Notes under the pieces: model-generated
The model's database searches: none
The model's input: the letters and a program-made list of their open reading frames with translations, nothing else
Told to the model about the DNA's origin: nothing
Shown here: piece by piece, positions 17,376-32,897 of the stretch
Position numbering within the stretch: position 1 is the first letter of the stretch
Layout of the letters: every line of letters starts with the position of its first letter
Program-made: the position numbers and the translations under genes
Source of the DNA: a virus
Reading direction: 5' to 3' (one strand)
Length of the DNA: 64,000 bases
Virus record (IMG/VR): IMGVR_UViG_3300045988_175328
Span: 163,220 to 227,219 of that record

Positions 17376-20300
17376 ATGAACAAACAAAACATTCAAAACA
17401 ACAAAAATTTAAAAGCTGTCGTATTGGCAGCAGTAGATGCAGCAGTAGCTGCTGATGTGCGCGTGGTTAATACCACTGCGGCGGTAACAACCGCAGAAGC
17501 AGTAGTTACTGAAACTGCAGAAACACTTGCGCGCGCAGCGGTACAGTTTCAAACATTTATCAACAATTTTGTAGTAGAAGGAGGCGAGTATCGTAGCTTC
17601 ATGGGCATTCTATCTGATGTAGGATTTACACATCCAGATCTTGTTAAATGGGTGCGTAAACAAAAATGGACAGAAGCAATGTCTATTTGGAGAGAGGGTC
17701 AAGGATACACACGTAATTCTTTCCTTTGTGATGAAGACTGGAATACATTCCTCGAATTACGGGAAGCCCTCCTTCAAGCGCGCAATGCGTACAAAAACGC
17801 AAAACGTAAATTAGCTAGAAAAGAAGTCGCATTAAAAGCAGCAAAAAAAGAGGCAGCAAAAGCCTTATTAGCAGAGAAATCTGCAAACAAACAATGGAAA
17901 AAGGCGAGAAAGGATGCGAAAGAAGCAAGAGCTACTGAAGCAGCAGTAGCAGTCGAAGAGGCTCGATTAGAAAAAGCACGAAAACGTGCTGAAAAAGTGG
18001 GTCCGAAGGAACCGCCAAAACAAAGAGTGGCCGTAGCTGTTGCTGGTCTTGAGTCCATGTTAGAATGGATCGAATCTAGAAAGGTAGCTGTTACTAAAAC
18101 AGTTGTATTAGAAAATACAGCTAAATTAGTAACAGAAGCTAACGCAGCTGTTGAGTACGGTTATATGGATGCTAGAACTGGAGAATTTGTTTCTACAGAA
18201 GGAACAAAAGAGTTCTCTGGTGCTAGATTCAAAACTGGTGCTATCAACATTGCCGATAAAAATACTGCTAAAGCAACAGCAAAAGCCAACGCTACTGCTA
18301 ATGGTAAAGATTTAGATGGAGACGTCATAAATCGCTTCGTTAAACCTAGAAATATCCTTGATGGATTCAAACTTAAATTGCAAATGTTTGGATCTAAAGT
18401 ACGTGTGCGTAACGTACTTAAAGGTAATCGTAAAGGTTTTAAAGCTGTAATGGGACCAAAAGCACAAGTTGCTATTAAGTCCATTATCGTTGACGGTAGC
18501 GACGTAATGGCTAATGGTGAAGGTGTAAAAGCTATGGCAGTAGCAACTACATCCTCCATTAGCTATATTGTACGTACAGCAATTCGTCTTGGCGAAGAAA
18601 AAGGATGGGCTGAAGAGCTTGTTCTTAGAAATTCTTCTATTAAGACTGGCTATATGGATGGCAACATCGGTATCAACTCTCATAGAGAGATGACATCGAT
18701 GGAAGCCGATTTAACATATATGACTGCAGAAGTATCTGCTAATTATGTGTTGAATGGCTTAATCTCCATTCATATCGATAAAGAGGATGAGGAAGGCGTA
18801 TCCTTCACAAAGGGCATTCGTCAAGCAGAATTCATTATCGTTGATGGAATTAAATACATTCCGTTAATGGTTGAGTCTGTTGCGAAGACTCGTCTATACG
18901 ATACAGTATGGACAGCTGAGCATCTGGCTAACCAATGGCGCGAAGTGCTTCGTGTAGCGACAGGAGGAATCTCTGACAGTATTACTCTAATGAAAGAGTT
19001 AACTAAAGCTCTTAAATTGAGAAGCCGTTTGGGAATGGGGTTCTCTCCTAGCTATGAGTTCGAAATCGATCTTGCACGTTGGGGCGTTGTGTATCTTGAC
19101 GCTTCTATCGATGCAATCGACGGACAAGCTTACGGAAGCAGAGCTATGATGGAAGAGCTTCTTGAACTAGCTGGCGTGAACTCATGGCAAGTTCGCACGA
19201 ATACAGGTAAAGGACAACTCGTTCCAATGAAAAGAATGAAACGTCTACTTGCTGTATTGTGCGAACAATACGGTCTTGAACTCGTTTACGTTTCTGACGT
19301 TGACGAAGTTCAAGCAGCTATTGATGCAGCAAGAGCTGAAGGTAAAAGAGTAGCCGTTGTTGTTGGTAACGCCGAACATATTGGCATGATCGGCGATATG
19401 AATTTCTTTAAAGGAATTCCGACTATCAATGATGGTGGCATTGTTCGTCTAAGCGTCTTGAGAAATCTTGCACCAACAGGCAACGGCTCTCACTTCGCTT
19501 ACCAGGCAGCAGTGGGTGCTTTATGCTCTTACGAATGGGATAATAAAGACCGTTTCGTAAAAGCATTGGCTATGCAAGCCGTTGAAAAATTCACAGAAGC
19601 TTTCAATGGCTGTGCTGTTAATAAATCTGTAACTGATTTGTTTGCAGCATTAGTTGGAGTAAAAGGATTGGCTGGCGAAGCTGATATCATCAGCGAATTA
19701 GCCAACGGTGCATTTACTCCAGCTATGTATGGCATTAAAGAGCTTTCCTATGCGTTAAGAAACGAGCAACAAGTTGTTCGTGGTAGTGCATGGAAAGTTT
19801 CTTGCCCAGGCATGAAGGACGAGCTATTTAACGAAGCTATTCTTGAAGGAGCTGGCCTACTTGTTGTAGAAGGAATTGTTTCTAATAACAATCCTTTACT
19901 AAAACAAGGCGATTGGGTGATGGCATTGAGATACCCACATTCCAATGGGTTCTCTTTCGTTAAAATCAGACTTGTAACAGTATCTGAAGCTATCGAAAGA
20001 GTGAACAACTCTTCCGCGTTTGCGGCTCAAAAAGCTGTCATGATCGATGAGCTATTATCCCTTGGTGATAATAACATCATGGTAGACAGCAGCCGTGAGG
20101 TATTGGAAGCATTAGCTGGTATGGATTTTGATGGAGACGTGATCTCTGTCTTAAATCCAGAAGAAGCAGAGTTGCTTTTGCCAATGGATGAGCTACGTAC
20201 AGTCATTGCTCCGATCGTAACGAAAGCTCAAGAAAAAGAGCTTGTTGTTACAGGAAACTTTGAAGATACAATGCAACATCTTCAAAGCGAGATGGCAGCT

Positions 20301-22178
20301 AATGAAACTAAGTACGTTGGCGAAATCTCCAATGGAGTAATGAAAGCAACTGAGTTCTTGGGTCTTCCTAAAGATGAACAAAGAAAAATTGTGGCAGAAA
20401 TTGTCCGCAATGGAAATCTAAGCCACAATGGCTTATTGCCTACGTTCAACTGGGAGGAACAAGTAACTTGGGTTGAAGGAAAAGAAGGATTCGTACTTAG
20501 CGATGAGTCTACAACTCCTCAAGCTTTAGTTGCTATGAAAAATGCGTTCTTCGATAAAGTTGATGAACGAAACTACTCTGTAGAAAGTTTCATCAACTTC
20601 GCAGAATACGTTGTCATCATGTCTGGTCCAACGCAAGGATTCGTAATTGATGCGGCGAAAAAATTCTGTCCAATCGTAGACTTAGCAGAAGATATCTTCT
20701 CCAACTTAAGTCTTGGATGGAAAAGATTCGCTCCAACAATGGTGCTTACATGCAATGAGTATGGAGAGTTCTCCAAAGGTATGTCTTATAACTTTGGCGA
20801 AGAGAACTCTAGCATTACTCTTACAGTAGGCGCATGTATTCAGGTAGAAGCTTTCAAAGCGTTTGCGGTGGAAGCTTCTAAAGCTATCTTAAATGCATTT
20901 GCTGGAGAGGATGCATCTAAAGCTAACTGGAAAGCATTTGAAGACGCATTGAAAAAAGAGTCTTTAATGTCTTTGGTTGGTGGTAAGATGAACTCTGCTA
21001 GAAAGAACTGCAGAAACATTGCTGCTGGAGCTGCAGCTGCGATTAAAGTTATCGACAACCAAATCGCAGAAGCTTGCGGCGAAGAAAACATTCCTAGTAA
21101 AACAATGAAGGAATGGAGCGACGCTATCGGCTGCATGTTTGCTGCATCTGGTACAATCAATCCTCTTGGATTACGTGCTTATGCATCCAGCAAAACATTA
21201 CGTCCAGCAATCTTGAAAGCAATGCTTGACGCTGCTGAAGTAAAATCCATTCCTGTAGAAATTGGATTTACTTCTATGGCAAGAGTTGCTTTTGCGAAAG
21301 CGAATGTTGGAGAAAAAGTATTCTTCGAAAACTCTAAAGCTGCTGATGCTAACGGAGTAATTCTTCTACACTCTGGTTTAACAGGTTACTACAAAGTATC
21401 TGTTAAAACAGAAGAAGTAGAAGAAAACGGAGAAACAATCTCTGTAGAGACATACTTCGTAGAAGTGCCTGTGTCCGAAGTATTAGGCATCGAACCGATG
21501 AAAACAAATCGTTTCGTTGCTCACTTAGGATACGAAGGTGCCGATGCTGAAGTCGCTAGAAAGTTTAATGCTGAATTAACTAAGTTCGACTTCTGCGCGG
21601 AAGGTACGTTCGCTTTCTATGGCACGATGAAAGAACTAAACAATCTTATGATTGAAAAGTTTGGCGAAGGTGTCTTAAGAGACGTATTGGTATCAACAAT
21701 AACTGGGCTAAAAAACGGTGAAGACGTTTATAGCCAACAGTTTGTTGATTTCATCGCTCTTGCTAATGGTCACGCTACTGATCCGAAGTATGCAGCTGAT
21801 GACAAACATGACCGCGTATTCTTTGTTCGCAAAGATGAGAATGGTCGGGTTGTGGTTATGAGATCATTGCCTAACCAAGCAATGGCTTATGGCCATGAAG
21901 CGTTTAAGCTAAGAGGCATGTTCGCTGGAGAACTAAGATTAGTTAGTTACATCTTAGAAGGAAAAGCTAAGTCTGACAAAAAGGGCTATGTTAATAGCTA
22001 CTTATTGTTAGAGCACAAAACTTTAGCTCCTAAGCAAGAAATCAGTGCGTATATCAATGGTTTAATTACTAAATATGCGGCTGATTTCAAAGCAGCTGTC
22101 TTAAATAAAAAGTTCGAATTAGGTTGCCTTGGTAGCCTAGTTCAAACTGTATTATCTGATGAAGAAATCATTGGATAA
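17376..22178 (+). CDS. putative single-chain two-barrel (DPBB) RNA polymerase, YonO / crAss-gp66-like
   Basis: 1600 aa from ATG 17376 (AAAGGAG RBS; track ORF starts at TTG 17352); RTNTGKG (19194-19214), RYPH (19929-19940), DFDGD (20124-20138) in beta-then-beta-prime order. Confidence 0.6.
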   Translation: MNKQNIQNNKNLKAVVLAAVDAAVAADVRVVNTTAAVTTAEAVVTETAETLARAAVQFQTFINNFVVEGGEYRSFMGILSDVGFTHPDLVKWVRKQKWTEAMSIWREGQGYTRNSFLCDEDWNTFLELREALLQARNAYKNAKRKLARKEVALKAAKKEAAKALLAEKSANKQWKKARKDAKEARATEAAVAVEEARLEKARKRAEKVGPKEPPKQRVAVAVAGLESMLEWIESRKVAVTKTVVLENTAKLVTEANAAVEYGYMDARTGEFVSTEGTKEFSGARFKTGAINIADKNTAKATAKANATANGKDLDGDVINRFVKPRNILDGFKLKLQMFGSKVRVRNVLKGNRKGFKAVMGPKAQVAIKSIIVDGSDVMANGEGVKAMAVATTSSISYIVRTAIRLGEEKGWAEELVLRNSSIKTGYMDGNIGINSHREMTSMEADLTYMTAEVSANYVLNGLISIHIDKEDEEGVSFTKGIRQAEFIIVDGIKYIPLMVESVAKTRLYDTVWTAEHLANQWREVLRVATGGISDSITLMKELTKALKLRSRLGMGFSPSYEFEIDLARWGVVYLDASIDAIDGQAYGSRAMMEELLELAGVNSWQVRTNTGKGQLVPMKRMKRLLAVLCEQYGLELVYVSDVDEVQAAIDAARAEGKRVAVVVGNAEHIGMIGDMNFFKGIPTINDGGIVRLSVLRNLAPTGNGSHFAYQAAVGALCSYEWDNKDRFVKALAMQAVEKFTEAFNGCAVNKSVTDLFAALVGVKGLAGEADIISELANGAFTPAMYGIKELSYALRNEQQVVRGSAWKVSCPGMKDELFNEAILEGAGLLVVEGIVSNNNPLLKQGDWVMALRYPHSNGFSFVKIRLVTVSEAIERVNNSSAFAAQKAVMIDELLSLGDNNIMVDSSREVLEALAGMDFDGDVISVLNPEEAELLLPMDELRTVIAPIVTKAQEKELVVTGNFEDTMQHLQSEMAANETKYVGEISNGVMKATEFLGLPKDEQRKIVAEIVRNGNLSHNGLLPTFNWEEQVTWVEGKEGFVLSDESTTPQALVAMKNAFFDKVDERNYSVESFINFAEYVVIMSGPTQGFVIDAAKKFCPIVDLAEDIFSNLSLGWKRFAPTMVLTCNEYGEFSKGMSYNFGEENSSITLTVGACIQVEAFKAFAVEASKAILNAFAGEDASKANWKAFEDALKKESLMSLVGGKMNSARKNCRNIAAGAAAAIKVIDNQIAEACGEENIPSKTMKEWSDAIGCMFAASGTINPLGLRAYASSKTLRPAILKAMLDAAEVKSIPVEIGFTSMARVAFAKANVGEKVFFENSKAADANGVILLHSGLTGYYKVSVKTEEVEENGETISVETYFVEVPVSEVLGIEPMKTNRFVAHLGYEGADAEVARKFNAELTKFDFCAEGTFAFYGTMKELNNLMIEKFGEGVLRDVLVSTITGLKNGEDVYSQQFVDFIALANGHATDPKYAADDKHDRVFFVRKDENGRVVVMRSLPNQAMAYGHEAFKLRGMFAGELRLVSYILEGKAKSDKKGYVNSYLLLEHKTLAPKQEISAYINGLITKYAADFKAAVLNKKFELGCLGSLVQTVLSDEEIIG

Positions 22179-22192
22179 CAAATAATAATAAA

Positions 22193-22227
22193 GAGAGACC
22201 TCTATATGGGGTCTCCTCTTTTTTTTT
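22193..22227 (+). terminator. intrinsic terminator after RNAP gene
   Basis: stem gagacc/ggtctc then T9. Confidence 0.8.
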
Positions 22228-22422
22228 ATTTTCTGGGATCCCCTCCGGGATCAGGATTCCTCCGCTACGGCTCAGCCTGCGCTCCGGAATAGGCCAGCCT
22301 ATGGCTGTCCGTTAGGAGCGTTATCATTAGGTAGAGGTATAACGATAGAGGAAATAAAAATCCTCATTTATGAGGGTTTATCCTTAGTAAGGAGGAAGAT
22401 AGAAAGTAAAAATGTTTTTCTT

Positions 22423-22450
22423 CTTAAGGGGCAAGCCCCTTAACAACCCC
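22423..22450 (+). repeat. H5 28-nt element cttaaggggcaagccccttaacaacccc, copy 1
   Basis: identical 28-mer also at 30995, 31998, 34950; variant at 38690. Confidence 0.9.
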
Positions 22451-22543
22451 GCCACCCCTGCGGGATGGACCGAACTGGCGGTGGATGAGGTCGTCCGAAA
22501 CGACGTCAAACTAAAGGAAAAATCCTCACTTGTGAGGAAACTT

Positions 22544-22567
22544 GCTCCTGAGTACGAGCTAAAACTG
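22544..22567 (+). promoter_or_regulatory. H1 element (covarying hairpin + TAAACTG), representative copy
   Basis: gctc-ctgagtac-gagc then taaaactg; one of 13 copies between 22490 and 26150. Confidence 0.6.
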
Positions 22568-22723
22568 CTTGCGAGGAAAAATCCTCGTTGTTGAGAGCAC
22601 TTGCTCTTCGAAGGCCCTGGCGGTGTCGGAGAGAGGAGTAGGTGCTGTGGTCCTGAATAAGACATTAAACTGTTTCAGAGGAGAAAATCCTCTGTTGTGA
22701 GAGAGCTCATTTAACTCTCTGTT

Positions 22724-22745
22724 TTAATTAAGCCAGTGTAGAAAT
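22724..22745 (+). promoter_or_regulatory. H3 hairpin with conserved GTAGAAATATTT loop in 5' UTR
   Basis: ccagt/gctgg stem; same loop at 25012, 32852, 35320 with different stems. Confidence 0.6.
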
Positions 22746-22785
22746 ATTTGCTGGTGTTTTCGGGCGCATGCCCAAGGAGGTTATC

Positions 22786-23250
22786 ATGTTAACTTTAGAA
22801 TTAAATCGAAAAATGGCCTATGGTTTTTTCCCAGAATTAATTCGCGATGAAGAGAAAATTGCGAATTTGAATGACTTATTTCAAGAAGTTATTATGAAAA
22901 ATAATCCTAACGGAGTTAAGCTCCAATTGGATTTTAAGCACAATGTAATTGTGCATAAAACCAATGTAGGCGAAGTAACTCTAGTAGAAGAGTACTTCCC
23001 TAATGGTACTGAAAAACTTTGGGTAAATCGTTTCCGTAACAGGAAACAACTATTACCTAAAGTTCCTGCAGAATTAATTCCTGTCGCAAAAGAATGCGAC
23101 GAAAGAAATTTATACAAATTTAATTATTTAAGAGAAGGAAACATTACGTTTTATCTCGCAAATAATAGAAAGGTTCTCGTAAGAGAAACTAAAATGGAGG
23201 ATGGAAGTCTTTCAATCGATTTATTCTACCTAGCTGATTTGTTGGCCTAA
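22786..23250 (+). CDS. hypothetical early-region protein
   Basis: 154 aa from ATG 22786, AAGGAGG RBS (track ORF starts at 22768). Confidence 0.7.
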   Translation: MLTLELNRKMAYGFFPELIRDEEKIANLNDLFQEVIMKNNPNGVKLQLDFKHNVIVHKTNVGEVTLVEEYFPNGTEKLWVNRFRNRKQLLPKVPAELIPVAKECDERNLYKFNYLREGNITFYLANNRKVLVRETKMEDGSLSIDLFYLADLLA

Positions 23251-23296
23251 GTAGAATAATCTCCTAAGCATGAGAATAAACTGCTTATTTGTAACG

Positions 23297-23321
23297 GCTC
23301 CTGAATATGAGCATTAAACTG
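23297..23321 (+). promoter_or_regulatory. H1 element, representative copy
   Basis: gctc-ctgaatat-gagc then attaaactg. Confidence 0.6.
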
Positions 23322-23421
23322 TTCTAGAAGAAAATCCTCTATTATGAGTTTTGTCCGTAATGACGATAAACTAATTATTATAATTTAATTTGGCGGCAAA
23401 TCGCCAGAAAGGAGGCATATT

Positions 23422-23577
23422 ATGTCTCAATTAGAATTAACAAACCACTTAGCGTGGGTAGAAGAAATGGTTGCATTCGCGGAGACTGAAGAGTCCAACT
23501 ACCGTGACTTCGAAGGATATCTTGCGGAGTCATTTATCGGAGGCCTGGACCTCTGGCTAGGAGACGATGAATTTTAG
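23422..23577 (+). CDS. small acidic hypothetical protein (51 aa, below ORF-track cutoff)
   Basis: AAAGGAGG RBS 7 nt before ATG; MSQLELTNHLAWVEEMVAFAETEE...; same hairpin-RBS leader as neighbouring genes. Confidence 0.6.
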   Translation: MSQLELTNHLAWVEEMVAFAETEESNYRDFEGYLAESFIGGLDLWLGDDEF

Positions 23578-23715
23578 ACTCTAGTTTCCTGACCAAGACC
23601 TAGGTATGTCTTTAAACTGCCTAAATCCTCCCCATTGCGGGGACTGAATTGTCTGAGATGACGTTAAACTATTTAATTTAATTCATGGCGGCAAATCGCC
23701 AGAAAGGAGATAAGT

Positions 23716-24006
23716 ATGCATACTTATACTCTTGAAAACACTGAGGCACTAGTTGCCTTAGTGCGTGACCTTTGTTTTAGCAATGGTCATTGTCCCAAAG
23801 AAATCTTCTCTTGGGATGAAAAACATTACATTGTAGCCGGCAACCTAGCTAGTTACGATGGACCATGGGACGGTCCTGAAGATGTCGCTCATATCTACGT
23901 TGATGGTGTAGGCGTGGGAGAAATAGATATCTTCGGCGCCGACCAAATTGCATTCGCCGTTGCTAACTGGAACGGCGAAGAATTGAACAGAAAGGTGGTG
24001 GCTTAA
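23716..24006 (+). CDS. hypothetical early-region protein
   Basis: 96-aa ORF; AAAGGAG RBS preceded by ggcggcaaatcgcc hairpin. Confidence 0.7.
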   Translation: MHTYTLENTEALVALVRDLCFSNGHCPKEIFSWDEKHYIVAGNLASYDGPWDGPEDVAHIYVDGVGVGEIDIFGADQIAFAVANWNGEELNRKVVA

Positions 24007-24036
24007 CTGCTTTTCTGTAATCTCGTCGACCACTCG

Positions 24037-24420
24037 GTGGATGTTTACGATTTAGTAGGAAATCTAATCGTGAGCATCCCTAAGAGTGGTCGTGTAGCTC
24101 GTGTTCGGACAAGTAGCGAAAGAGTGGGCGCTATTTGTTCTAAGGATTTTAGCTATCGAAAATACAATGAAGACGGTAGCTATGAAGATACACCACTTAA
24201 AGGGAACCCACAATCTGGGCACCTGAATATATTCAAATCTGAGTATTCAGATGTCGAAGGGTTCCCTGAAACTATAGAACAGGGTGTGTATTATATTGTC
24301 AGTTCTATGGTGGCGTCTCGTATACAGAGTCATCAGGTTATTGCGCCTGGTCAGATTATGCGGGACGCCTCCGGCAAAGCCGTAGGATGCTGCGGTCTTA
24401 GTTATACTGCCGGAAGATAA
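24037..24420 (+). CDS. hypothetical protein
   Basis: 127-aa ORF with GTG start and no clear RBS. Confidence 0.5.
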   Translation: MDVYDLVGNLIVSIPKSGRVARVRTSSERVGAICSKDFSYRKYNEDGSYEDTPLKGNPQSGHLNIFKSEYSDVEGFPETIEQGVYYIVSSMVASRIQSHQVIAPGQIMRDASGKAVGCCGLSYTAGR

Positions 24421-24460
24421 ATTAATTAATTTAAATAGGGCCCGGATGCTCGAGGAGGTA

Positions 24461-24637
24461 ATGATGAAGAATATAATTATCGTATGCATGCTATCACTAA
24501 TCTGCACTATAGCAATAGTGGAATTTTCAGTAGGCTTGTTCCCAGCATTAGCTGGGTATCCAGAAGCATTGGCTACAGCAGGAGCTATTTCTGTTGCAAC
24601 TATTTCCTTCATGTTGTTTGACATGATAGGAGACTGA
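24461..24637 (+). CDS. small hydrophobic membrane peptide
   Basis: 58 aa from ATG 24461 after GAGGAGG; two predicted TM segments. Confidence 0.6.
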   Translation: MMKNIIIVCMLSLICTIAIVEFSVGLFPALAGYPEALATAGAISVATISFMLFDMIGD

Positions 24638-24656
24638 AAAATCCTCGTTTATGAGG
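24637..24656 (+). promoter_or_regulatory. H2 element AAAAATCCTC-N-TGAGG, representative copy
   Basis: aaaaatcctcgtttatgagg; one of at least 19 copies in the window. Confidence 0.6.
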
Positions 24657-24732
24657 AGAAGTCCGTAATGACTGTAAACTATTCTAATATATTTAATTAA
24701 TTAAAGGGCGCAAATGCCCGGAGGAGGTTTCT

Positions 24733-24903
24733 ATGAGAGACGAAATCATTTTATTAATTTCCAGCATTGCAGTAGGAGTGGGAATTTCTACTCTTATTAA
24801 TGAGGTTTTCCCTATATTAGTGGATTATCCATTAGTAATGTCTATCTTCGGAGGAATCATCTCAGGAGCGATATATTATTTTATTCACTTGTTATCATAC
24901 TAG
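24733..24903 (+). CDS. small hydrophobic membrane peptide (56 aa, below ORF-track cutoff)
   Basis: GGAGGAGG RBS; MRDEIILLISSIAVGVGISTLINEVFPILVDYPLVMSIFGGIISGAIYYFIHLLSY; resembles 24461 product. Confidence 0.6.
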   Translation: MRDEIILLISSIAVGVGISTLINEVFPILVDYPLVMSIFGGIISGAIYYFIHLLSY

Positions 24904-25076
24904 TAGAATAAAATCCTCAGACCTCAGCAAGTCTTTAAACTACTCTTTCCTGACAGTTCCTAAGTATGAACATAAAACTGCTTATCTTTTAAAAATCCTC
25001 GCTTGTGAGGTGCTTGCGTAGAAATAGCAAGCTATATTATTTTAATTAGGCCTTAGGCCAGAAATGGAGTTTTATC

Positions 25077-25547
25077 ATGAAAACACAAAAATCTACAGAA
25101 CGCAAATTAGTTAATTTTTCTAGCTACTTTAAACAAAAAGACGACAAAGTCTTTGGTGCTGCTGTATTGCACTGCGGCAAGGAAGTGCAAGTTGCTGCTT
25201 ACAATGGCGGCAAAGCCCTTCATTCTATTGAAGGAGCTGTGTGTGCAGCAGCATGCGCAGCTACAGTAAATATGAAGAAGGGAGACCTCTTCACCATGAT
25301 TGTTGACTTGAAGACATTACGCCAATTATGGTCTGCTATTAAAACTGGCAATGTAACTGATGACTTCGCAGGCAATGAGGCGGAACGCAATGCCGTTATC
25401 AAAATGGCCGAACGCGTTCCAGCCCTTCGGGCTCGCGGCATTATTGTGAACATTCGTGCTCATAAAGATGTCTATGCAAGTGGAGGATACTTAGCAGGGC
25501 AACTCCCAATTTGGAGCCGTATGGCTACCAAAGCTATGAACATCTAA
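25077..25547 (+). CDS. hypothetical protein
   Basis: 156-aa ORF; leader carries H2, H3 and a ggcc-tta-ggcc hairpin. Confidence 0.7.
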   Translation: MKTQKSTERKLVNFSSYFKQKDDKVFGAAVLHCGKEVQVAAYNGGKALHSIEGAVCAAACAATVNMKKGDLFTMIVDLKTLRQLWSAIKTGNVTDDFAGNEAERNAVIKMAERVPALRARGIIVNIRAHKDVYASGGYLAGQLPIWSRMATKAMNI

Positions 25548-25604
25548 ATCCTCTGACCTGAGCATGTCGGTAAACTGCTCAATTATTTAATTTAATTTAA
25601 TTAA

Positions 25605-25620
25605 GGGCGGCAAATCGCCC
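25605..25620 (+). promoter_or_regulatory. H4 GC hairpin abutting the RBS, representative copy
   Basis: gggcggcaaatcgccc followed directly by gaggagg; similar at 22753, 23391, 23686, 24706, 25049, 48760. Confidence 0.6.
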
Positions 25621-25632
25621 GAGGAGGTTTAT

Positions 25633-26118
25633 ATGCAAACTTTGAAAATTAACAATCCTACAAGAAACTTAATTGAGATGACTTTAGAGGTCACAAAATT
25701 AAACGGCACTATTGAACAAGACGGCAATGCTGTTATCATTAATTTGCCAGAAGAACAGGTGTCTGCCTTTGTAGAATGGTACGGTGGTACTGGACTTAAG
25801 GAGACTGCCCTTGCCATCGCAAAGAAAGCAGGAGCATTAACTGCCAAAGCAGGAGACCTTACGAAAGTAGGGACTGTTGCTTTAGGAAAATTATCTTTCA
25901 AGACAGCCTTCGGTATGACTCGCAGAGCCATTGAGGCGACCGCGGGGATCACAGCTGCGGCCGTTAATGGCGCCAAAGAAGCTTATAGCGAAATGGTAAG
26001 TTCTGACGAGTTCAGAGCTGTTAAAGAATCTTTTAGTTCTGGACGCGGCAACGGCATTGAATTTGTCGAAATGACACCGGTTGTTCAAGCTGAAGTAGCA
26101 GAAGTTGTAGAAGGATAG
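25633..26118 (+). CDS. hypothetical protein, family E (paralogue of 47362..47877)
   Basis: 161 aa; ...LSFKTAFGMTRRAIEATAG...SDEFRAVKESF aligns with ...LAFKTTFGVGRRCVETVAG...SEEFNDLRNQF. Confidence 0.75.
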   Translation: MQTLKINNPTRNLIEMTLEVTKLNGTIEQDGNAVIINLPEEQVSAFVEWYGGTGLKETALAIAKKAGALTAKAGDLTKVGTVALGKLSFKTAFGMTRRAIEATAGITAAAVNGAKEAYSEMVSSDEFRAVKESFSSGRGNGIEFVEMTPVVQAEVAEVVEG

Positions 26119-26127
26119 AAATCCTCA

Positions 26128-26150
26128 GACCTGAGCAAGTCGTTAAACTG
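26128..26150 (+). promoter_or_regulatory. H1 element fused to an H2 AAATCCTC box
   Basis: aaatcctca-gac-ctgagcaa-gtc-gttaaactg. Confidence 0.6.
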
Positions 26151-26190
26151 CTTAATTTAAATTGAATTATATTTTATGGAGGGAACTGTC

Positions 26191-26304
26191 ATGAATAAAG
26201 AAGTTAAACAAATTATTGCATCTATCGGAGTATTAGGATTGTGTTACGCAGTCGGATACGCTATTGGCTATTTCGGATTTAATCTTGTTAAGAAAATTAA
26301 ATAA
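26191..26304 (+). CDS. small hydrophobic peptide (37 aa, below ORF-track cutoff)
   Basis: GGAGGG RBS; MNKEVKQIIASIGVLGLCYAVGYAIGYFGFNLVKKIK. Confidence 0.5.
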   Translation: MNKEVKQIIASIGVLGLCYAVGYAIGYFGFNLVKKIK

Positions 26305-26314
26305 AGGAGGCTAC

Positions 26315-26575
26315 ATGACTATTTCTGAACTTGAGGGCGCCATTAAAATGATGTTCATCATTTACGGCGAGCCGACCGCAACGAATATTGGCTACGGTGT
26401 TTTCAGAGTCACCGCTAGTGATGCTGAAATCCTTATTGAGAGGATTGATACTACTGGTGGATCTAGTATTAAACTGACTGGTCCGTCTGGTTCTATTGAA
26501 AAAGACGAGCCGTCTTTAGAATTTAGATTGTTGGTTGACCGTCTAGAGCGAGTTGTAGACGGTTATAATTATTAG
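26315..26575 (+). CDS. family D small protein (N-half type)
   Basis: 86 aa from ATG 26315 after AAAGGAGG (track ORF starts at 26264). Confidence 0.7.
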   Translation: MTISELEGAIKMMFIIYGEPTATNIGYGVFRVTASDAEILIERIDTTGGSSIKLTGPSGSIEKDEPSLEFRLLVDRLERVVDGYNY

Positions 26576-26597
26576 TTTATCTGTAAGGAGAAACATT

Positions 26598-27083
26598 ATG
26601 GAATTACAAGTAATTAAAGGTATGGTTATTGCGGCAAAATTAGCAAACAAATTTATGGGCGGCGCCTTGGAAAACAATCGTGCCGAGCTCCAAATCGGTG
26701 ACGTGAATTTAGTTATTTACAGCGCTGGCGGAAACGAGGTAGTAATTGCTCCAACTTCTATGGAGATGTGGTATGACCCAATCCATGTTGAAGGAACTTT
26801 GGAAACTGTCTTCGATACCATCGGAGAGATGCTAAAAGAAGCTGTCGAAGATGACGAAGACTCTCCATATCGTTACGAGTTTCCTAACTTAGAGCGCCTT
26901 GTCGAGTATATCGAGAAAGAAACAGGTGTCGTAGCTAACGAACATCCTAAATGCTATACTAAAGAATGGGACGGTATTATGGAATTCGACGAGTTCAAAA
27001 TCGTTTTCTTTGGGCCATACCATGGTACTGTATATGTGCCGGAAGATTACAAACTTAACTTTGTGTTGAAAGAGTTACCATAA
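26598..27083 (+). CDS. family D two-domain protein
   Basis: 161 aa; about half of residues identical by eye to 27363 product (…SPYR..F.NL..LVEYI.KETG...EHPK.Y...FGPYHGTVY.PEDY.LNFVL.ELP). Confidence 0.8.
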   Translation: MELQVIKGMVIAAKLANKFMGGALENNRAELQIGDVNLVIYSAGGNEVVIAPTSMEMWYDPIHVEGTLETVFDTIGEMLKEAVEDDEDSPYRYEFPNLERLVEYIEKETGVVANEHPKCYTKEWDGIMEFDEFKIVFFGPYHGTVYVPEDYKLNFVLKELP

Positions 27084-27094
27084 GGAGAAATATT

Positions 27095-27349
27095 ATGGAA
27101 TTAATTAAAGGATTATTCATTGGCGCCGCCTTACTAGGCAAACCAGTTCTCGTTAAGAAAGAACGGAAGGGCGTATACAATTTTATTATCGGGCCGATCA
27201 CAGTTTTTATCTATGATTGGGATGACAGTCGCACTATCGTCGGTATTGATGGACCAGAAGGTTCATACGAATCTTACAAAATCGACGGGGATGTGAGAAC
27301 AGTATTACACTACCTTGTAGATGTCAACAATAATATCGAGATTAAATAG
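27095..27349 (+). CDS. family D small protein (N-half type)
   Basis: 84 aa; MELIKGLFIGAALLGK... matches N-terminal half of 26598 product. Confidence 0.7.
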   Translation: MELIKGLFIGAALLGKPVLVKKERKGVYNFIIGPITVFIYDWDDSRTIVGIDGPEGSYESYKIDGDVRTVLHYLVDVNNNIEIK

Positions 27350-27362
27350 GAGTATTATTGCT

Positions 27363-27842
27363 ATGAAAATTATTGAAGGTTTAATTATGGCTGCAAGATT
27401 AGCAAATAAAGATATAACATATCGACTAGAAATTAATTATGCCGAATTTAAGATTGGAGATATTACTTTAGATATCTACATAAAAGATAAAAATATAGTT
27501 ATGATTACTCCGACTTGTGAGAACATGTGGGGACAGCCACTCTATATCGAAGGAACAGTCGGGTCTGTTTTCTCTGATATCTTAGACATGGTAAACGAAT
27601 CAGATGTCGATTCTGAGAATTCTCCGTATCGTCAGCGCTTTTCAAATTTAAAATCTTTGGTTGAGTACATCGTAAAAGAAACGGGAGCTATTGCAGGAGA
27701 ACATCCCAAACGTTATATCGAAGAGTGCGCTGACGTTATCGAATTCATTGAATTTAAAGTTGTATTATTCGGGCCATATCATGGAACAGTGTATGCTCCC
27801 GAAGATTACCAACTGAACTTTGTTTTAGACGAATTACCGTAA
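27363..27842 (+). CDS. family D two-domain protein
   Basis: 159 aa from ATG 27363 (track ORF starts at 27321). Confidence 0.8.
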   Translation: MKIIEGLIMAARLANKDITYRLEINYAEFKIGDITLDIYIKDKNIVMITPTCENMWGQPLYIEGTVGSVFSDILDMVNESDVDSENSPYRQRFSNLKSLVEYIVKETGAIAGEHPKRYIEECADVIEFIEFKVVLFGPYHGTVYAPEDYQLNFVLDELP

Positions 27843-27851
27843 GGAGAATTT

Positions 27852-28076
27852 ATGATGGTATTATATTTCGATACAGTTGAGGAGCTTATCGAATATTTTA
27901 AAAAGAAATCTGGATTCGAGCCGGGGCCTGTGAAAATTATTCGTTATTCTGATGGCGCATTCGATATTGTATATGGAGATATCGAGCTAGAATTCGAGAA
28001 TAAGATTAAAGGTTCCGTCTTGTTCTGTGGCGACTTTATGGTTCGCTTCGAACTTGGCACTCCCGTCGTAATCTAA
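27852..28076 (+). CDS. family D small protein (C-half type)
   Basis: 74 aa; VEELIEYFKKKSGFEPGP... resembles C-terminal half of 26598 product. Confidence 0.7.
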   Translation: MMVLYFDTVEELIEYFKKKSGFEPGPVKIIRYSDGAFDIVYGDIELEFENKIKGSVLFCGDFMVRFELGTPVVI

Positions 28077-28128
28077 AAAATCCTCGTTGGCGAGGTCGTA
28101 TTTAAAATTTAATTAAGGAGGAATTATT

Positions 28129-28392
28129 ATGAACATGTCTTATTACGGAAGCTTATTTGATTTGGTAGAAGATATTAAAAAAGACTGCGGCGGATGGGAA
28201 ACGTACAGTTATAAAGCCAAAGGCAATCAGTTAGACATTGAATTCTTTTTGGGCGACGATATCGTATGTAAGGCTGTCTTCGTGTTCGAGAAAAACTTAA
28301 TCGAAGGATCTTATGTTGTCGACGAAGATATTTATGACTTCTCGGTTAAAACGGATGAAGTATTACACCATTTGTTTGCACGTTTAGGTTAG
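28129..28392 (+). CDS. family D-like small protein
   Basis: 87-aa ORF, AAGGAGG RBS. Confidence 0.7.
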   Translation: MNMSYYGSLFDLVEDIKKDCGGWETYSYKAKGNQLDIEFFLGDDIVCKAVFVFEKNLIEGSYVVDEDIYDFSVKTDEVLHHLFARLG

Positions 28393-28438
28393 TTGCTTGG
28401 GTCCTTCGGGACCCTTATTCTTTTATCTGGAGGTTACT

Positions 28439-28672
28439 ATGTCTATTGAATGGATTAAAGATATGTTTATTAAATTAAAAGATGAGGCCGGAGCTATTGT
28501 CGGCATTGGTAATATGCATGACTATGATTTCGGGAAGATGTCTTTTAATTTTATCGACATGGACTTTGGAGTTGTCGGCGTCTCTTTCTGGGAAGGAGAT
28601 GACGTATTTAATTTTGACGTATGCGCCGACTATGAAGAATTAATTAATGAACTTAATAGTATTCTAGGATAA
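28439..28672 (+). CDS. family D-like small protein
   Basis: 77 aa from ATG 28439 after GGAGG (track ORF starts at 28397). Confidence 0.65.
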   Translation: MSIEWIKDMFIKLKDEAGAIVGIGNMHDYDFGKMSFNFIDMDFGVVGVSFWEGDDVFNFDVCADYEELINELNSILG

Positions 28673-28682
28673 GGAGAACTAT

Positions 28683-28916
28683 ATGGAAAACTTGTGCGAA
28701 TTATTAATGGAAGAAAAAGAAATAGGATTAGTTCAGTCTGTCGAGATTGAAGACGACTTATATCTATATGAATATCCAAGCGGCCGAGCACTCGTTAAAG
28801 AAATAGACGGGTACGCTACTTGTGACGTAGAGGTGGACGGAAGAAGATTCTTTTCAGATATCCATCTGCCATATAAAGATGTGGTGCGAGAATTAAACAG
28901 AGTCGTAGAATTATAA
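28683..28916 (+). CDS. family D-like small protein
   Basis: 77-aa ORF, AAGGAG RBS. Confidence 0.7.
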   Translation: MENLCELLMEEKEIGLVQSVEIEDDLYLYEYPSGRALVKEIDGYATCDVEVDGRRFFSDIHLPYKDVVRELNRVVEL

Positions 28917-28920
28917 TAAT

Positions 28921-28968
28921 AAGGGGTGCCCGAGCGAAGCGAGGGGTTAACGCCCCTTTTATTTTTTT
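28921..28968 (+). terminator. intrinsic terminator whose loop holds the first GA/GAA hairpin unit
   Basis: aaggggtg...cgcccctt stem then tttatttttttc. Confidence 0.7.
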
Positions 28969-29475
28969 CTAATAACCGTCTCCAACGGATCTAGCGAGCG
29001 AAGCGAGCGATTAACGAACCTACTATGTTTAAAGGGCGAGCGAATGCGAGCCCTTGTTAATGGACTTGTTTATATGAGGCGAGCGAAGCGAGCCGTTAAT
29101 GTACCTATCTTAAGTTTAGTAAGGGCGAGCGAAGCGAGCCCATTAAAGAACTAACTTAAAGATAGTAGCGATGCGAACGAAGTGAGCCGAGCTGTTGGTC
29201 CTTACTATAGTATAGTCGGCGAGTGAAACGAGCCGTTATAGTATAGTACTTATATATAGTATTAATAGAAAGAACCCGAAGGGTTATTATGTATAATAGT
29301 ATATATAAGCGAAAAAGGGAGCGTGAGCGACAGAAGGAGAGGCGGCGAACGAAGTGAGCCGTTGTTTGTTTCTTTGTTCCTGTATATATAAGAAAAGACA
29401 AGACAATTTGTTTTCGTCTTTTTGTTATATATAGTATAAAGAAAAAGAATAAATGGGCGCGAGCGGCAGCGAGCG
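28929..29475 (+). repeat. array of about 10 GGC-GA-GC-GAA-GC-GA-GCC hairpin units, each followed by GTTAA-like sequence
   Basis: units at 28929, 28993, 29034, 29078, 29123, 29173, 29217, 29318, 29341, 29455; outer stems covary (ccc/ggg vs ggc/gcc), inner gc/gc vs gt/ac. Confidence 0.8.
28974..28989 (+). repeat. 16-nt direct repeat aaccgtctccaacgga, left copy
   Basis: exact second copy at 43141-43156; both follow a terminator plus T-rich run. Confidence 0.85.
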
Positions 29476-29608
29476 ATTGTTTGTTCTTGTATACTATATA
29501 ATAGTATAAGAAAGACAAGAATTTTTTTGTTTGTCTTATAGTACTATATAGTATTAATAGTAAAAGAAATAAAAAAAAGAATGCCGGAAGTGGTCTTGAA
29601 GAGATTTA

Positions 29609-29636
29609 TGGTAATATAAGTCATGGTACATGACTT
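29609..29636 (+). promoter_or_regulatory. extended -10 (TGgTAATAT) followed by GTA-triloop hairpin, unit 1
   Basis: tggtaatat then aagtcatg-gta-catgactt then aac. Confidence 0.5.
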
Positions 29637-29786
29637 AACCCGTGGGAATTGTGGACGACCCTTCCTTCCGGTGCATGTACCTTTTTTATTTTTTGTCGCT
29701 GGCTCTTATTTAATTTTTGTTCTTGTTATATACTATATATATAATAATAAAAGAAATTAAAATAAGAATCGGCGCCGAGAAAATTT

Positions 29787-29813
29787 TGAGTAATATAAGT
29801 CTCGAAGAGACTT
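29787..29813 (+). promoter_or_regulatory. TGagTAATAT followed by GAA-triloop hairpin, unit 2
   Basis: aagtctc-gaa-gagactt then aac. Confidence 0.5.
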
Positions 29814-30036
29814 AACCGTGAGGTAGAATGGCCGGATGAATTGCTATTGTCTTATACTATATATATAGTAAGACACATAACATATCGCCGCCCGAACCCT
29901 TTAAAAAATTTTATTATTAAATTAATTTATATTTTTTAATTTTTTCGCCCCTGGTATTTTATTATAGTACTATATAGTAATAATATATAAACATAACAAC
30001 ATAATAATAATCGCCCGGGCTTCCTGAAAAAATTTT

Positions 30037-30062
30037 TGGTAATATAAGTCTCGAAGAGACTT
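30037..30062 (+). promoter_or_regulatory. extended -10 (TGgTAATAT) followed by GAA-triloop hairpin, unit 3
   Basis: identical hairpin aagtctc-gaa-gagactt. Confidence 0.5.
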
Positions 30063-30238
30063 AACTCCTTACCCCCGGTATCTTGATCCCGTAGGGGTCT
30101 TATTGTACTGTATCTACACTATAGTACTTACCGAACAAAATGTTTCTTATCTTACTTTTTATTCGGTTGTACATAGGGTTAGACACTTCGGTACATTAAA
30201 AAATTTTTTTTCTAAAAAAATGACTAACGTAACTTTTA

Positions 30239-30262
30239 TGAGTAATATAACTAACGTTAGTT
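30239..30262 (+). promoter_or_regulatory. TGagTAATAT followed by palindrome aactaacgttagtt, unit 4
   Basis: same TAATAT box, different but still palindromic downstream sequence. Confidence 0.45.
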
Positions 30263-30329
30263 TTCTTCGAAGAGAAGTAAGCTGAAACTGCAAGGCTGCC
30301 TGCTCTACGACTGCCCGTACGGTTTTTTA

Positions 30330-30930
30330 TAGAAGAATGGTAGTGTATTAATACTGTACTGTTAGTACTACTAGTACTGTACTACTCGACCCACACCTTT
30401 TGTGGCTGTGCCCTAAAAGGACGGGCCACTCTAATAGTTTTTTTACAGAAATTGTAGTTAATTTGTACTATTTCTAATGCAATATTAATAGTAAAACTGC
30501 ATTGGTTTTTCTGTACTTATAGATATACTAATTGCATTAGTTTTACAGATACAATTGTATTGGTTTTACAGTACCAACAGTTAACTAACACTACAGTACT
30601 TACAGTACTAATAAGACCGTACCAATGGTTTTAATGGTACTATAGTAAGATTGTACCATTGCCAATACAGCACTGCAAATAAAACCGTACTGTTTTGCAG
30701 TACTAAATGGTAATTAAATTGGTATGTTAATACAGTACTAACAAAACTGAACCAATGCTATTAATAGTACTACAGTTAAACTGTATCAACAAGACAGTAC
30801 CTATAGTACTATCAGAACTATAGTTAGATTGTATCAATAAGACAGAACCAATAGAACTATTGAAGCTATAGAAAGACTGTACTAATTAAACTGTACTAAT
30901 AGTATTAACAGTACATATAGTAAAGTAGTA
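30330..30930. repeat. GTAC-rich iteron field (possible origin or protein-binding array)
   Basis: I count 21 GTAC tetramers, mostly as CAGTAC(T/C) or CTGTACT, interleaved with about 10 copies of ACTGTAYCAATGGTTTTA-like repeats. Confidence 0.7.
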
Positions 30931-30994
30931 TTATATTAATAATTGTAATAGTAGTATTAATAATAAGAAGAATAAAGAAAAGAAAAATTTTTTT

Positions 30995-31022
30995 CTTAAG
31001 GGGCAAGCCCCTTAACAACCCC
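30995..31022 (+). repeat. H5 28-nt element, copy 2
   Basis: cttaaggggcaagccccttaacaacccc preceded by A5T7. Confidence 0.9.
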
Positions 31023-31025
31023 AAG

Positions 31026-31053
31026 TTGGTGAAGTTTAAAACAGCAGTAATAT
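31026..31053 (+). promoter_or_regulatory. candidate sigma-A-type promoter
   Basis: TTGGTG, 16-nt spacer, TAATAT. Confidence 0.4.
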
Positions 31054-31059
31054 AAAGAC

Positions 31060-31268
31060 TGTGTTTTTTGTATCACCTCCAATACCGAAACACACATCAT
31101 AATGTTTCCTCCTTTCTAAAATGATGAGAACTGAGAGCTCGGTTGAAACTTAGACCGAGCCTTGGTCTTATCGCGTTTACGCGTAATATACGAGTCCTGT
31201 AAGGACTCGATAACTGGAAACGATGTTAATTTATAGGAATATAGCCGCCCGTTTGGGCGGCTTTTTTT
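31060..31268 (+). ncRNA. candidate small RNA or structured leader (three hairpins + terminator)
   Basis: gctcggt/accgagc, cgcgt/acgcg, cgagtcc/ggactcg stems, then agccgccc-gttt-gggcggct T7 (31243-31268); no ORF. Confidence 0.4.
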
Positions 31269-31289
31269 GTTTTATTTGAGGTGTTATTT

Positions 31290-32018: not shown

Positions 32019-32025
32019 CAACCCC
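31998..32025 (+). repeat. H5 28-nt element, copy 3
   Basis: identical 28-mer; contains stop codon of 31290 gene. Confidence 0.9.
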
Positions 32026-32134
32026 AAGTTGACGTAGGTTTAAAGTGCTACGTTAGCAAATAAAATCCTCATTAGTGAGGCACATTTAATGCTATCTATA
32101 GAACATACGTTCTTATTAATAAGGAGGTGATCTT

Positions 32135-32446
32135 ATAAGATATCAAAGCTGTGAAGAATTTGAAAGCTACTTCGACGGTCGATTTTATCTATTAAAAGAT
32201 CTTATTCGTGGAAATAAATTATTATGGGAAGTTGAAATAGATAAGTATACTGTTATAAATATATTAACTGAAGGAGACAGGTATGGAATAATATATCCCG
32301 AGAAAGAACGGAACTATTTTGAAGTAGGTATAATGTATGAGTCAGAAGGAAGCAATGATATTACACATCAAACTATATTAAATGTTCCTTATTATGTGGC
32401 GCTTGAAATAATAAAGAGCTTAAAAGAAGATACTTTAAAGGAGTAG
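32135..32446 (+). CDS. family B paralogue lacking a canonical start codon (possible ATA/CTT start or pseudogene)
   Basis: open frame from 32126; AGGAGGT RBS 5-7 nt before ATA 32135; product ...FESYFDGRFYLLKDLIRGNKLLWEVEID...VPYYVALEIIKSL closely matches 37213 product; absent from ORF track. Confidence 0.5.
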   Translation: MRYQSCEEFESYFDGRFYLLKDLIRGNKLLWEVEIDKYTVINILTEGDRYGIIYPEKERNYFEVGIMYESEGSNDITHQTILNVPYYVALEIIKSLKEDTLKE

Positions 32447-32450
32447 TTTA

Positions 32451-32786: not shown

Positions 32787-32851
32787 TATTCATTAATTTG
32801 CGTATTTATGTATCGGCAAAAATCCTCATTTGTGAGTTATTTTTATGTTCT

Positions 32852-32875: not shown

Positions 32876-32897
32876 TGTGTTATTATAGGAGGTACTT

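Follow-up and report, generated by a model that had tools for sequence, protein, structure and literature searches.

The H2 box: a probable phage-specific transcription control signal in gene-linker cassettes of an uncultured phage

Described phage signals and the H2 locus

The promoter-early stem-loops (PeSLs) of T4-type phages are cassettes that run from a stop codon to the next ATG in regions of small genes of no known function, and recombination often takes place in their AT-rich part (PMC2839356). Thermus phage P23-45 has a virion RNA polymerase (RNAP) fused to the tape measure as well as a second two-barrel RNAP (Chaban et al. 2024, PMC10770324), and these two polymerases use two private promoter motifs, while a conserved 26-nt motif stands at termination sites among the small early genes (PMC10770324). 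The signal considered here, the H2 box (AATCCTC-N5-TGAG, 16-20 bases, usually preceded by A's), is repeated between small genes of an uncultured jumbo phage represented by IMG/VR virus record IMGVR_UViG_3300045988_175328. This record is 227,219 bp long and carries 119-nt terminal repeats at its ends, which indicate a circular assembly; our window, to which all positions refer unless stated otherwise, is its last 64 kb (genome 163,220-227,219). We confirm the repeated box as an observation and conclude that it is probably a phage-specific transcription control signal, housed in reusable gene-linker cassettes, rather than an ordinary bacterial promoter or terminator.

The resemblance to PeSLs proposed in a first-pass annotation of the window holds for the composite cassette, since H2 cassettes run from stop to start, contain stem-loops, lie in a plastic region of ORFan genes and coincide with the breakpoints of insertions, deletions and replacements between close relatives. 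As in T4-type phages, these are conserved cassettes of about 50-100 bp ending in a Shine-Dalgarno sequence (SD) and ATG (PMC2839356; PMC4122927), their crossovers are often AT-rich, and their stem-loops stand in variable register to a conserved linear signal. On the other hand, a PeSL has a strong sigma-70-like early promoter with AT-rich DNA upstream of it and a stable stem-loop that works as terminator or attenuator, whereas 17 of the 19 H2 copies lack a sigma-70 -35/-10 consensus. AATCCTC-N5-TGAG is unrelated to the PeSL signal, the H2 stems are not of the GGGG/CCCC kind, many H2 cassettes include an H-type pseudoknot, and the phage, with no match in the phage collection searched, is probably not T4-like.

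With P23-45 the locus shares small early genes punctuated by strongly conserved, phage-private motifs, and the H2 phage also has an RNAP-like gene with a DxDGD motif. Transcript starts and ends were mapped experimentally in P23-45, and PeSLs, which belong to T4-like myoviruses, form mini-circles. The promoters of T7/T3/SP6-class RNAPs are likewise phage-private signals of roughly 20 nt, placed in one orientation between genes and often abutting the upstream stop; they differ in that no T7-like RNAP is known in the H2 phage and in that the H2 motif is bipartite with a variable middle. The RNase III sites of T7 are intergenic hairpins that give stable mRNA ends, but the H2 hairpins are far too short for RNase III.

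Occurrence, anatomy and conservation of the box

The box region begins 3' of a large open reading frame (ORF) that is a candidate single-chain two-barrel RNAP (the RNAP-like gene; Table 1). It comprises a small-gene block at 22.8-28.9 kb (GC about 40%), a gene-free repeat region of 2.4 kb (28.9-31.3 kb) and, from 31.3 to 64 kb, further small genes that form the low-GC arm. Nearly all genes of the phage genome are on the + strand.

All 19 copies listed by the first-pass annotation are present, give or take 3 nt according to the base chosen as the beginning of the A-run. We counted AAAATCCTC 17 times in the window against 1.30 expected (at most 4 in 100 shuffles), with 16 of the 17 on the + strand, and AAATCCTC-N4-8-GAGG 8 times against 0.02 expected. 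Over the complete genome (227,219 bp), AAATCCTC is the commonest intergenic 8-mer; it occurs 22 times on the + strand, 19 of them intergenic, as against 8 on the - strand. All but one of the 22 + strand copies (21) fall within genome 185.6-225.0 kb (window 22.3-61.8 kb). The fuller pattern AATCCTC-N5-[TC]GAG is found 15 times on the + strand and not once on the - strand, and true H2 copies are all intergenic. A possible trans-acting complement, CTCA-N-GAGGAT, has zero occurrences in the genome.

Where boxes occupy gaps of 42 nt or more, there is one proximal box per gap, 42-100 nt upstream of the next start codon, and the box is absent from tightly packed blocks in which genes lie 9-22 nt apart. 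In the low-GC arm, boxes stand 18-54 nt from the previous stop and 42-77 nt from the next start. In six of the 19 window copies the box touches or overlaps the preceding stop codon (-1 to 8 nt), and many copies in the relatives described below do likewise. The last gene of the small-gene block ends in a canonical terminator without a box, and in every relative an array of 3-8 boxes lies between the terminator of the RNAP-like gene and the first ORFan gene. Boxes 46904 and 46960 occupy a divergent region beside a minus-strand HU-like gene, with no + strand ORF ending nearby. The arrays before the first small gene, the box-less last gene, the boxes of the divergent region and the distances in the low-GC arm favour a role for the downstream gene.

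Searches of curated phage records and of IMG/VR gave no relatives. Only ENA/Logan assemblies, searched through homologues of the RNAP-like protein, yielded some: five related metagenomic phages (L012/L016, L009/L010, L014, L019/L020 and L021). The box is present in all five, at syntenic and at additional sites, and always on the gene strand. Among 109 distinct ATCCTC contexts pooled, T[G/C]AG follows exactly 5 nt on in 75 and CGAG in six more, although many pooled copies are orthologues and such counts of distinct copies, here and below, overstate independence. AATCCTC and TGAG are essentially invariant across the six phages, at a fixed 5-nt spacing, while their surroundings vary. Of the invariant part described earlier, an A-tract plus TCCTC, the latter therefore stands, as a portion of AATCCTC with TGAG at N5, and the A-tract does not: it often gives way to G or to other bases in L019 and L021, and most L019 copies lack it. 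Likewise, the 3' arm, given as usually TGAGG, is a full GAGG in only 8 of the 19 copies and [T/C]GAG in 15 (14 TGAG, 1 CGAG).

The box occurs in two structural settings. In type L, which has about 55 distinct copies, the hairpin is formed by CCTC and GAG(G); a fourth pair is present in 36 of the 55, outward extension of the stem is confined to a minority, and in 35% of copies the stem is just a 3-bp CUC/GAG. Many of these hairpins have 3-4 bp and -2 to -5 kcal/mol. Type L copies fold at -5.8 kcal/mol, against -2.6 kcal/mol for controls with the 3' part shuffled. Stems of 6-8 bp are found in some copies, mainly of L019 and L021, where CTC, TCC or CCC is inserted after CCTC along with a second GAGG, or where a cUUCGg tetraloop is inserted; and where the T before GAG has changed to C, the facing base is G in four of six cases. 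This better-than-shuffled folding, the extended stems, the cUUCGg insertions and the compensating G point to some selection for pairing in the sense RNA at type L boxes. In type S (about 20 distinct copies), AATCCTC runs straight into the stem of a second module whose loop contains TGAG, and there is no box hairpin.

Across copies, the box stem-loops thus vary in register, in length (3-8 bp), in loop and in stability (-2 to -20 kcal/mol). The 5-nt spacing between AATCCTC and TGAG is held in all settings of TGAG: opposite CCTC in a stem, opposite an inserted CTC in an extended stem, or in a pseudoknot loop. Because block spacing is constant while the surrounding fold differs, we take the linear motif, and not one RNA fold, to be the constant feature and the strongest clue that the letters may be read linearly. 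Double-stranded DNA would be the simplest substrate for such reading, with the stem-loop as a second, generic layer. A cmscan of window 22000-33000 against Rfam 15 (E<=5) gave chance matches only, far below gathering scores.

The box is housed in stop-to-start intergenic cassettes of 45-100 nt, to which those of the first 4 kb add three further elements: an H-type pseudoknot of 28 nt supported by covariation, a linker rich in AU, and a hairpin just ahead of the SD (pre-SD hairpin). Homology to the relatives breaks at elements of these cassettes. In L012, the 154-aa ORF at 22786 is swapped for an unrelated 128-aa ORF, with the left junction in the linker after a box and the right junction in a pseudoknot. 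L014 has extra small genes between boxes, and in L009/L010 a YpsA-family gene is inserted between two cassette copies, so that window 25546-25642 aligns to both of its flanks. At 28075 the box is retained in a cassette from which pseudoknot and pre-SD hairpin, both kept in L009, L014 and L021, have been lost. The redundant box at 24910 has decayed in two relatives, and the second box of the same gap is invariant. Furthermore, gene order in the low-GC arm is heavily reshuffled between the window and L016, with boxes in different contexts.

Table 1. Positions of the H2 boxes and associated features in the window
Feature	Position	Strand	Remarks
RNAP-like gene, 1600-aa ORF, candidate single-chain two-barrel RNAP	17376-22178	+	GMDFDGD (DxDGD) motif; directly upstream of cassette region
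ORF-free structured leader, from RNAP-like terminator to first ORFan	22216-22785	+	4 H2 boxes and 3 pseudoknot/hairpin modules
H2 copy 1 (AAAAATCCTCATTTATGAGG)	22356-22375	+	First of 4-copy array in ORF-free leader after RNAP-like gene; conserved in L012/L014
H2 copy 2, type L	22518-22537	+	Own hairpin
H2 copy 3	22577-22596	+	3' arm GAGA; L012 homology ends just past copy
H2 copy 4	22684-22702	+	100 nt upstream of first ORFan gene (22786)
H2 copy 5	23331-23349	+	3' arm GAGT; L014 homology restarts here
H2 variant, AAATCCTC then CCCC-ATTGC-GGGG hairpin	23623-23646	+	TGAG lost; present in L012 and L014 orthologues
H2 box	24637-24656	+	Directly after stop TGA; cUUCGg variants of the loop and extended stems in orthologues
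H2 type S, degenerate (TCAG)	24910-24928	+	Fused to pseudoknot; decayed in L012 and L009 orthologues
H2 type L	24991-25010	+	Invariant in 4 relatives
H2 type S	25546-25563	+	Overlaps stop TAA; pseudoknot directly after
H2 type S	26119-26136	+	Directly after stop TAG, then pseudoknot; ahead of tightly packed 6-gene block
H2 type L	28075-28095	+	Overlaps stop TAA; CGAGG arm, G-C closing pair; minimal cassette
H2 type L	32062-32080	+	Low-GC arm; upstream of ORF at about 32135
H2 type L	32818-32837	+	77 nt upstream of gene 32898
H2 type L	36546-36565	+	Overlaps stop TAA; sigma-70-like TTGTGA-17-TATATT
H2 type L	46904-46923	+	Divergent intergenic region: minus-strand HU-like gene left, gene 47024 right
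H2 variant (TGAC)	46960-46977	+	63 nt upstream of gene 47024
H2 variant (TGAC)	48514-48532	+	Second block overlaps -35 of TTGACA-17-TATAAT promoter (48527-48555)
H2 type L (GAGA arm)	61824-61843	+	42 nt upstream of gene 61869
Class I pseudoknot modules (nine, 28-29 nt)	22544-22571, 22649-22676, 23260-23287, 23297-23325, 23596-23623, 24919-24946, 24956-24984, 25554-25581, 26127-26154	+	
Class II blocks (four), GTC-N6-GAC-NN-TAAACTA	22493-22513, 23353-23373, 23651-23671, 24661-24681	+	Sequence conserved, no covariation
Pre-SD hairpins	22732-22754, 24706-24719, 25012-25032, 25049-25059, 25605-25619; also 32852-32874, 35320-35343	+	Covarying stems; GCAAAT or TAGAAATA loops

A promoter or operator core and the competing explanations

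The reading that we tentatively favour, while rating it somewhat short of an even chance, is that the box would be the core of a promoter or operator private to the phage and recognised in DNA by its linear sequence. A generic RNA stem-loop would overlap this core, and the cassette would double as a recombination linker. The bipartite sequence would be read on double-stranded DNA by machinery that the phage specifies, either a non-canonical phage RNAP or a phage factor on the host polymerase, and each small transcription unit would have the box as its promoter or operator. The variable stem-loop that overlaps the box would fold in read-through RNA and act as a generic attenuator or stabiliser, a job similar to that which the pseudoknot, AU-rich linker and pre-SD hairpin may do in the first 4 kb. 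Because they are repeated, the cassettes may in addition offer patches of homology at which genes are inserted, lost or replaced. The outcome would be a functional analogue of T4-type PeSLs without sigma-70 signals.

We are led to this reading by the enrichment, + strand bias and intergenic siting of the box, with one proximal copy per gap and none in packed blocks, and by the constant 5 nt that separate the two blocks in 75 distinct copies of the six phages. P23-45, with its private motifs for two two-barrel polymerases, provides a precedent. The loss of the pseudoknot and pre-SD hairpin at 28075, where the box is kept, points the same way, as do the homology breakpoints and the cassette-flanked YpsA insertion. 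Finally, no -10 element is found at a fixed offset, no Sigma70_r2 or r4 match above cut-off was detected in the phage genome, and a DxDGD RNAP-like gene adjoins the array.

A number of observations weigh against a promoter or operator core. The extended stems, the cUUCGg variants, the change of the closing pair from G.U to G-C and the highly structured leader are signs of selection at the RNA level, and part of the function of the box, at least, therefore lies in RNA. An element of the 3'-untranslated region (UTR) would also explain the copies at upstream stops, and in the YpsA event box and pseudoknot travel with the upstream ORF. Furthermore, two boxes of L019 lie just 23 nt apart, the N5 of type S copies is GC-rich, unlike a melting region, the box is identical in the window phage and L014 though their RNAP-like genes are 35% identical, and no cultured relative of the phage was found in searches of phage records.

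Several of these points would be expected if AAUCCUC-N5-UGAG and its hairpin punctuated the RNA, as the target of a sequence-specific protein, probably encoded by the phage, that either binds RNA or acts as an endoribonuclease. Polycistronic early transcripts would then split into units whose ends would be shielded by the hairpin, the pseudoknot and the pre-SD hairpin. The strict sense-strand bias, the intergenic position, the abutted stop codons and the folding of type L copies relative to shuffled controls fit such a role, and the adjoining pseudoknot is certainly RNA, as its U.G pairs are allowed only in + strand RNA. However, one linear motif appears in incompatible folds, in several hairpin registers or single-stranded beside a pseudoknot with TGAG in the loop, and a protein that reads structure is unlikely to accept them all, the less so with 3-bp stems in over a third of type L copies. 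No RNase or RNA-binding candidate emerged among the ten proteins searched (nine of the 22.8-28.9 kb block and a 242-aa ORF at 31290), which matched no known family in Pfam or PHROG, and boxes 46904 and 46960 stand where no + strand ORF ends upstream. We regard this explanation, in either of its two parts, as the main rival, though on balance unlikely.

If the box is indeed a promoter or operator core, the adjacent RNAP-like polymerase is unlikely to be its reader, because its alleles have diverged so far while the boxes are the same. The candidates that remain are a putative tape-measure-linked polymerase and a factor acting on host RNAP. Another motif, G-TAATATA-(A/G), lies 15-50 nt upstream of many start codons genome-wide (in the window at 29611, 29790, 30039, 30242, 31047, 31183, 44876 and 54435). 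Six copies fall in the gene-free region at 29.6-31.2 kb, five of them with a hairpin directly after, and the motif is conserved in L010, L012, L014 and the more distant contig L050. This G-TAATATA-R motif is a candidate promoter of another class, for a phage RNAP. It is a rather doubtful extension of the promoter reading that AATCCTC-N5-TGAG would be the promoter of one non-canonical two-barrel RNAP, most plausibly the putative tape-measure-linked, injected one, and G-TAATATA-R that of the other.

To our knowledge, the promoters of single-chain two-barrel phage RNAPs are almost unknown, and only those of P23-45 have been mapped. The promoter of YonO is undefined (PMC5467207), and no promoter motif was found for gp66 of crAss-like phages (bioRxiv 10.1101/2020.03.07.982082).

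It is improbable that the box is only a sense-strand attenuator or terminator, in which sequence and hairpin together would stop a phage RNAP that ignores ordinary terminators. Its place directly after stop codons, the array that follows the RNAP-like gene and the precedent of the conserved P23-45 motif at termination sites speak for it, as does the occurrence of AATCCTC as the 5' arm of a canonical terminator at 16680. But 3-8 stop signals ahead of the first gene would silence the block, the last gene of which uses a canonical terminator instead of a box; the divergent-region copies have nothing to terminate; and the hairpin, often of only 3-4 bp, is not followed by a U-tract. The terminator at 16680-16725, which stands after a tail-fibre gene, has a 12-bp stem and a T-run and lacks TGAG at N5. 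Its shared arm may be a coincidence, or the box hairpins may have derived from terminators.

Less probable still is a recombination linker or site with no expression role, that is, a repeat spread and homogenised for cassette exchange in the manner of integron attC sites or REP elements. The cluster genes have no known function, breakpoints fall at cassettes and one gene insertion is flanked by duplicated cassettes. Yet eleven specific letters are invariant across phages while loops and flanks diverge freely, which argues for selection on the letters, and the breakpoints lie in several elements (AU-rich linker, pseudoknot loop), as for general homologous recombination and not for a site-specific crossover.

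We give very little credence to the model of the first-pass annotation, under which the A-tract would act as UP element and the 3' arm would supply the -35 hexamer (TTGNGA) for a family of early promoters, used by host sigma-70/sigma-A and joined to a stem-loop. A sigma-70/sigma-A promoter is rejected for 17 of the 19 copies, which lack a -10 at 16-18 nt from the TTGNNA hexamer, and a scan of -10 hexamers at all offsets downstream of the box found no offset with TAnnnT in at least five of the 19. The A-tract is, moreover, dispensable in the relatives. The TTGNGA hexamer is formed in every copy only in a loose sense, and of the four copies credited with a good -10 at 17 nt, 36546 and 48514 keep it (TTGTGA-17-TATATT and TTGACA-17-TATAAT, respectively) and 46904 and 28075 do not. 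Copies 36546 and 48514 fit the model, and genuine sigma-70-like promoters exist elsewhere in the 31-64 kb arm; however, the -35 at 48514 is out of register with the usual TGAG block, and at 28075 the sole -10-like hexamer would put the start inside the SD.

Box-less gaps of the low-GC arm (39162-39284, 41607-41679, 56944-57021, 59272-59377 and 62939-62988) contain good sigma-70-like promoters (TTGACA-N17-TACAAT, TGTGATATAAT) and canonical terminators, and host-type and phage-private signals therefore coexist in this arm.

The idea of textbook minus-strand intrinsic terminators, which would block antisense transcription in a one-strand genome, is hardly credible: six window copies pass a loose hairpin and T-run scan and the + strand holds nearly all genes, but the reading fails because the relatives lack the A-tract (L019 and L021 keep the hairpin and AATCCTC with the A-run replaced) and because the stems are mostly too short (3-5 bp and -2 to -7 kcal/mol in most window copies), while type S copies have no such hairpin and the invariance of AATCCTC is not expected of intrinsic terminators.

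The hairpin promoters of the N4 virion RNAP, extruded from DNA, have stems of 5-7 bp and 3-nt loops with specific bases in both, and number three per genome. By analogy, a small sequence-specific hairpin could be an early promoter for an injected polymerase, and a few copies of L019 and L021 have 6-8-bp stems with 3-nt loops. We rejected an N4-type hairpin promoter, as H2 stems are often of 3-4 bp with loops of 4-8 nt, mostly 4-6 nt, and type S copies have no hairpin.

Associated RNA elements and neighbouring genes

The class I modules (Table 1) consist of a 4-5-bp stem, a loop (C)TGAGYA, 1-2 bases, (T/A)AAAC and TGCTYA, and base pairs join the loop to TGCTYA, the tail of the TAAACTGCTYA box. 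The predicted fold is a 28-nt H-type pseudoknot in which 4 bp and then 6 bp are each followed by one base, with an A-rich connecting loop of 6-7 nt. In 45 distinct copies from six phages, loop and tail pair in 93.8% of cells; shuffling lowers this to 76%, with none of 500 shuffles as high as the real figure, and slid controls give 25-38%. They also change together (GAG/CTC, AAG/CTT, GGG/CCC, AGG/CCT, GAA/TTC, TGG/CCA), with both-side changes at four of the six pairs. The copies had been chosen by helix 1 and by similarity of the loop core to TGAGTA, not by loop-tail pairing, and the helix 2 result is therefore independent of the selection. Since its U.G pairs would be A.C on the other strand, the structure belongs to + strand RNA. 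A metagenome-wide pattern scan gave mostly single chance matches and one real distant relative, L050, with seven pseudoknot copies in which loop and tail covary but no AATCCTC box; box and pseudoknot are thus separable. Judged by its covariation, the predicted 28-nt pseudoknot is a new, well-supported, multi-copy phage RNA motif.

The translational operator of T4 gene 32 comprises a pseudoknot of about 28 nt followed by an unstructured leader of UUAAA/UAAA repeats (PMC535899). The pseudoknot module, as distinct from the box, resembles it in that its 28-nt H-type pseudoknot, too, precedes an AU-rich stretch containing TTTAA repeats, with the SD further downstream. It differs in being multi-copy ahead of unrelated genes and in having a GC hairpin between the AU-rich linker and the SD.

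Other interpretations of the modules were tried and rejected. TAAACTGCTT could be read as a T4 MotA box (TGCTT) of middle promoters, but the TGCTYA tail covaries with the hairpin loop in the pseudoknot, class II blocks lack TGCTT, and downstream -10-like hexamers stand at no fixed distance. Type S pseudoknots begin 5-9 nt after stops, an arrangement of stop, spacer and pseudoknot that might suggest recoding by frameshift or readthrough; however, the distance to the stop keeps no constant frame, and in-frame stops come immediately afterwards. Mini-ORFs in the cassettes were discarded because of inconsistent frames.

Among the pre-SD hairpins, those at 22732-22754, 25012-25032, 32852-32874 and 35320-35343 share a (G)TAGAAATA(TT) loop and form a repeated 5'-UTR element. 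A further hairpin, TTAAGGGG-N3-5-CCCCTTAA, has five copies, the sole ones in the genome (22424, 30996, 31999, 34951 and 38690), usually with CAACCCC after it and often with a T-run before it. The ORF-free leader folds far better than shuffled sequence (z -5.8 at 22216-22785, and -10.6 in L019 at 17560-18180) and has many loops of UUCG and GNRA type; independently of the boxes, it may constitute a large, structured leader RNA.

Left of the box region lie tail-fibre genes with Gp10_C domains. The RNAP-like ORF, closed by a canonical terminator at 22195-22232, had no match in Pfam, PHROG or PDB sequences, a profile search against the last included. Its counterpart in L014 (917-6145) has 35% amino acid identity to it, and the two are alike at the DNA level over the first ~290 codons only, within flanking DNA that is 80-90% identical. 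Two such different alleles within similar flanks point to an allele replacement of the polymerase gene. In L019 (15409-17385) and L020 (6593-8569), the RNAP-like gene is directly followed by a 658-aa gene with AAA_33, PolyA_pol and HD domains (CCA-adding or poly(A) polymerase-like), which the window phage lacks. The ORF at ~32135-32446, a paralogue of the next gene (32451-32786), starts with ATA after a good SD and with ATG in L012, L014 and L021; this is either a start-codon mutation or a non-canonical start. Judged by the strong AGGAGG SDs, the host is probably a Firmicute-like bacterium.

Whatever the mechanism, PeSL-style modular shuffling of small genes of no known function exists outside T4-like phages and without sigma-70 promoters. 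If the assignment of the two motifs to two polymerases were true, gut jumbo phages would have a two-polymerase, two-promoter early/late programme, and the pseudoknot next to the box would count as a new regulatory RNA of the 5'-UTR, present in multiple copies. Sharply defined, private to the clade and strand-specific, the signal beside such a candidate polymerase gene provides concrete templates for in vitro transcription and reporters.

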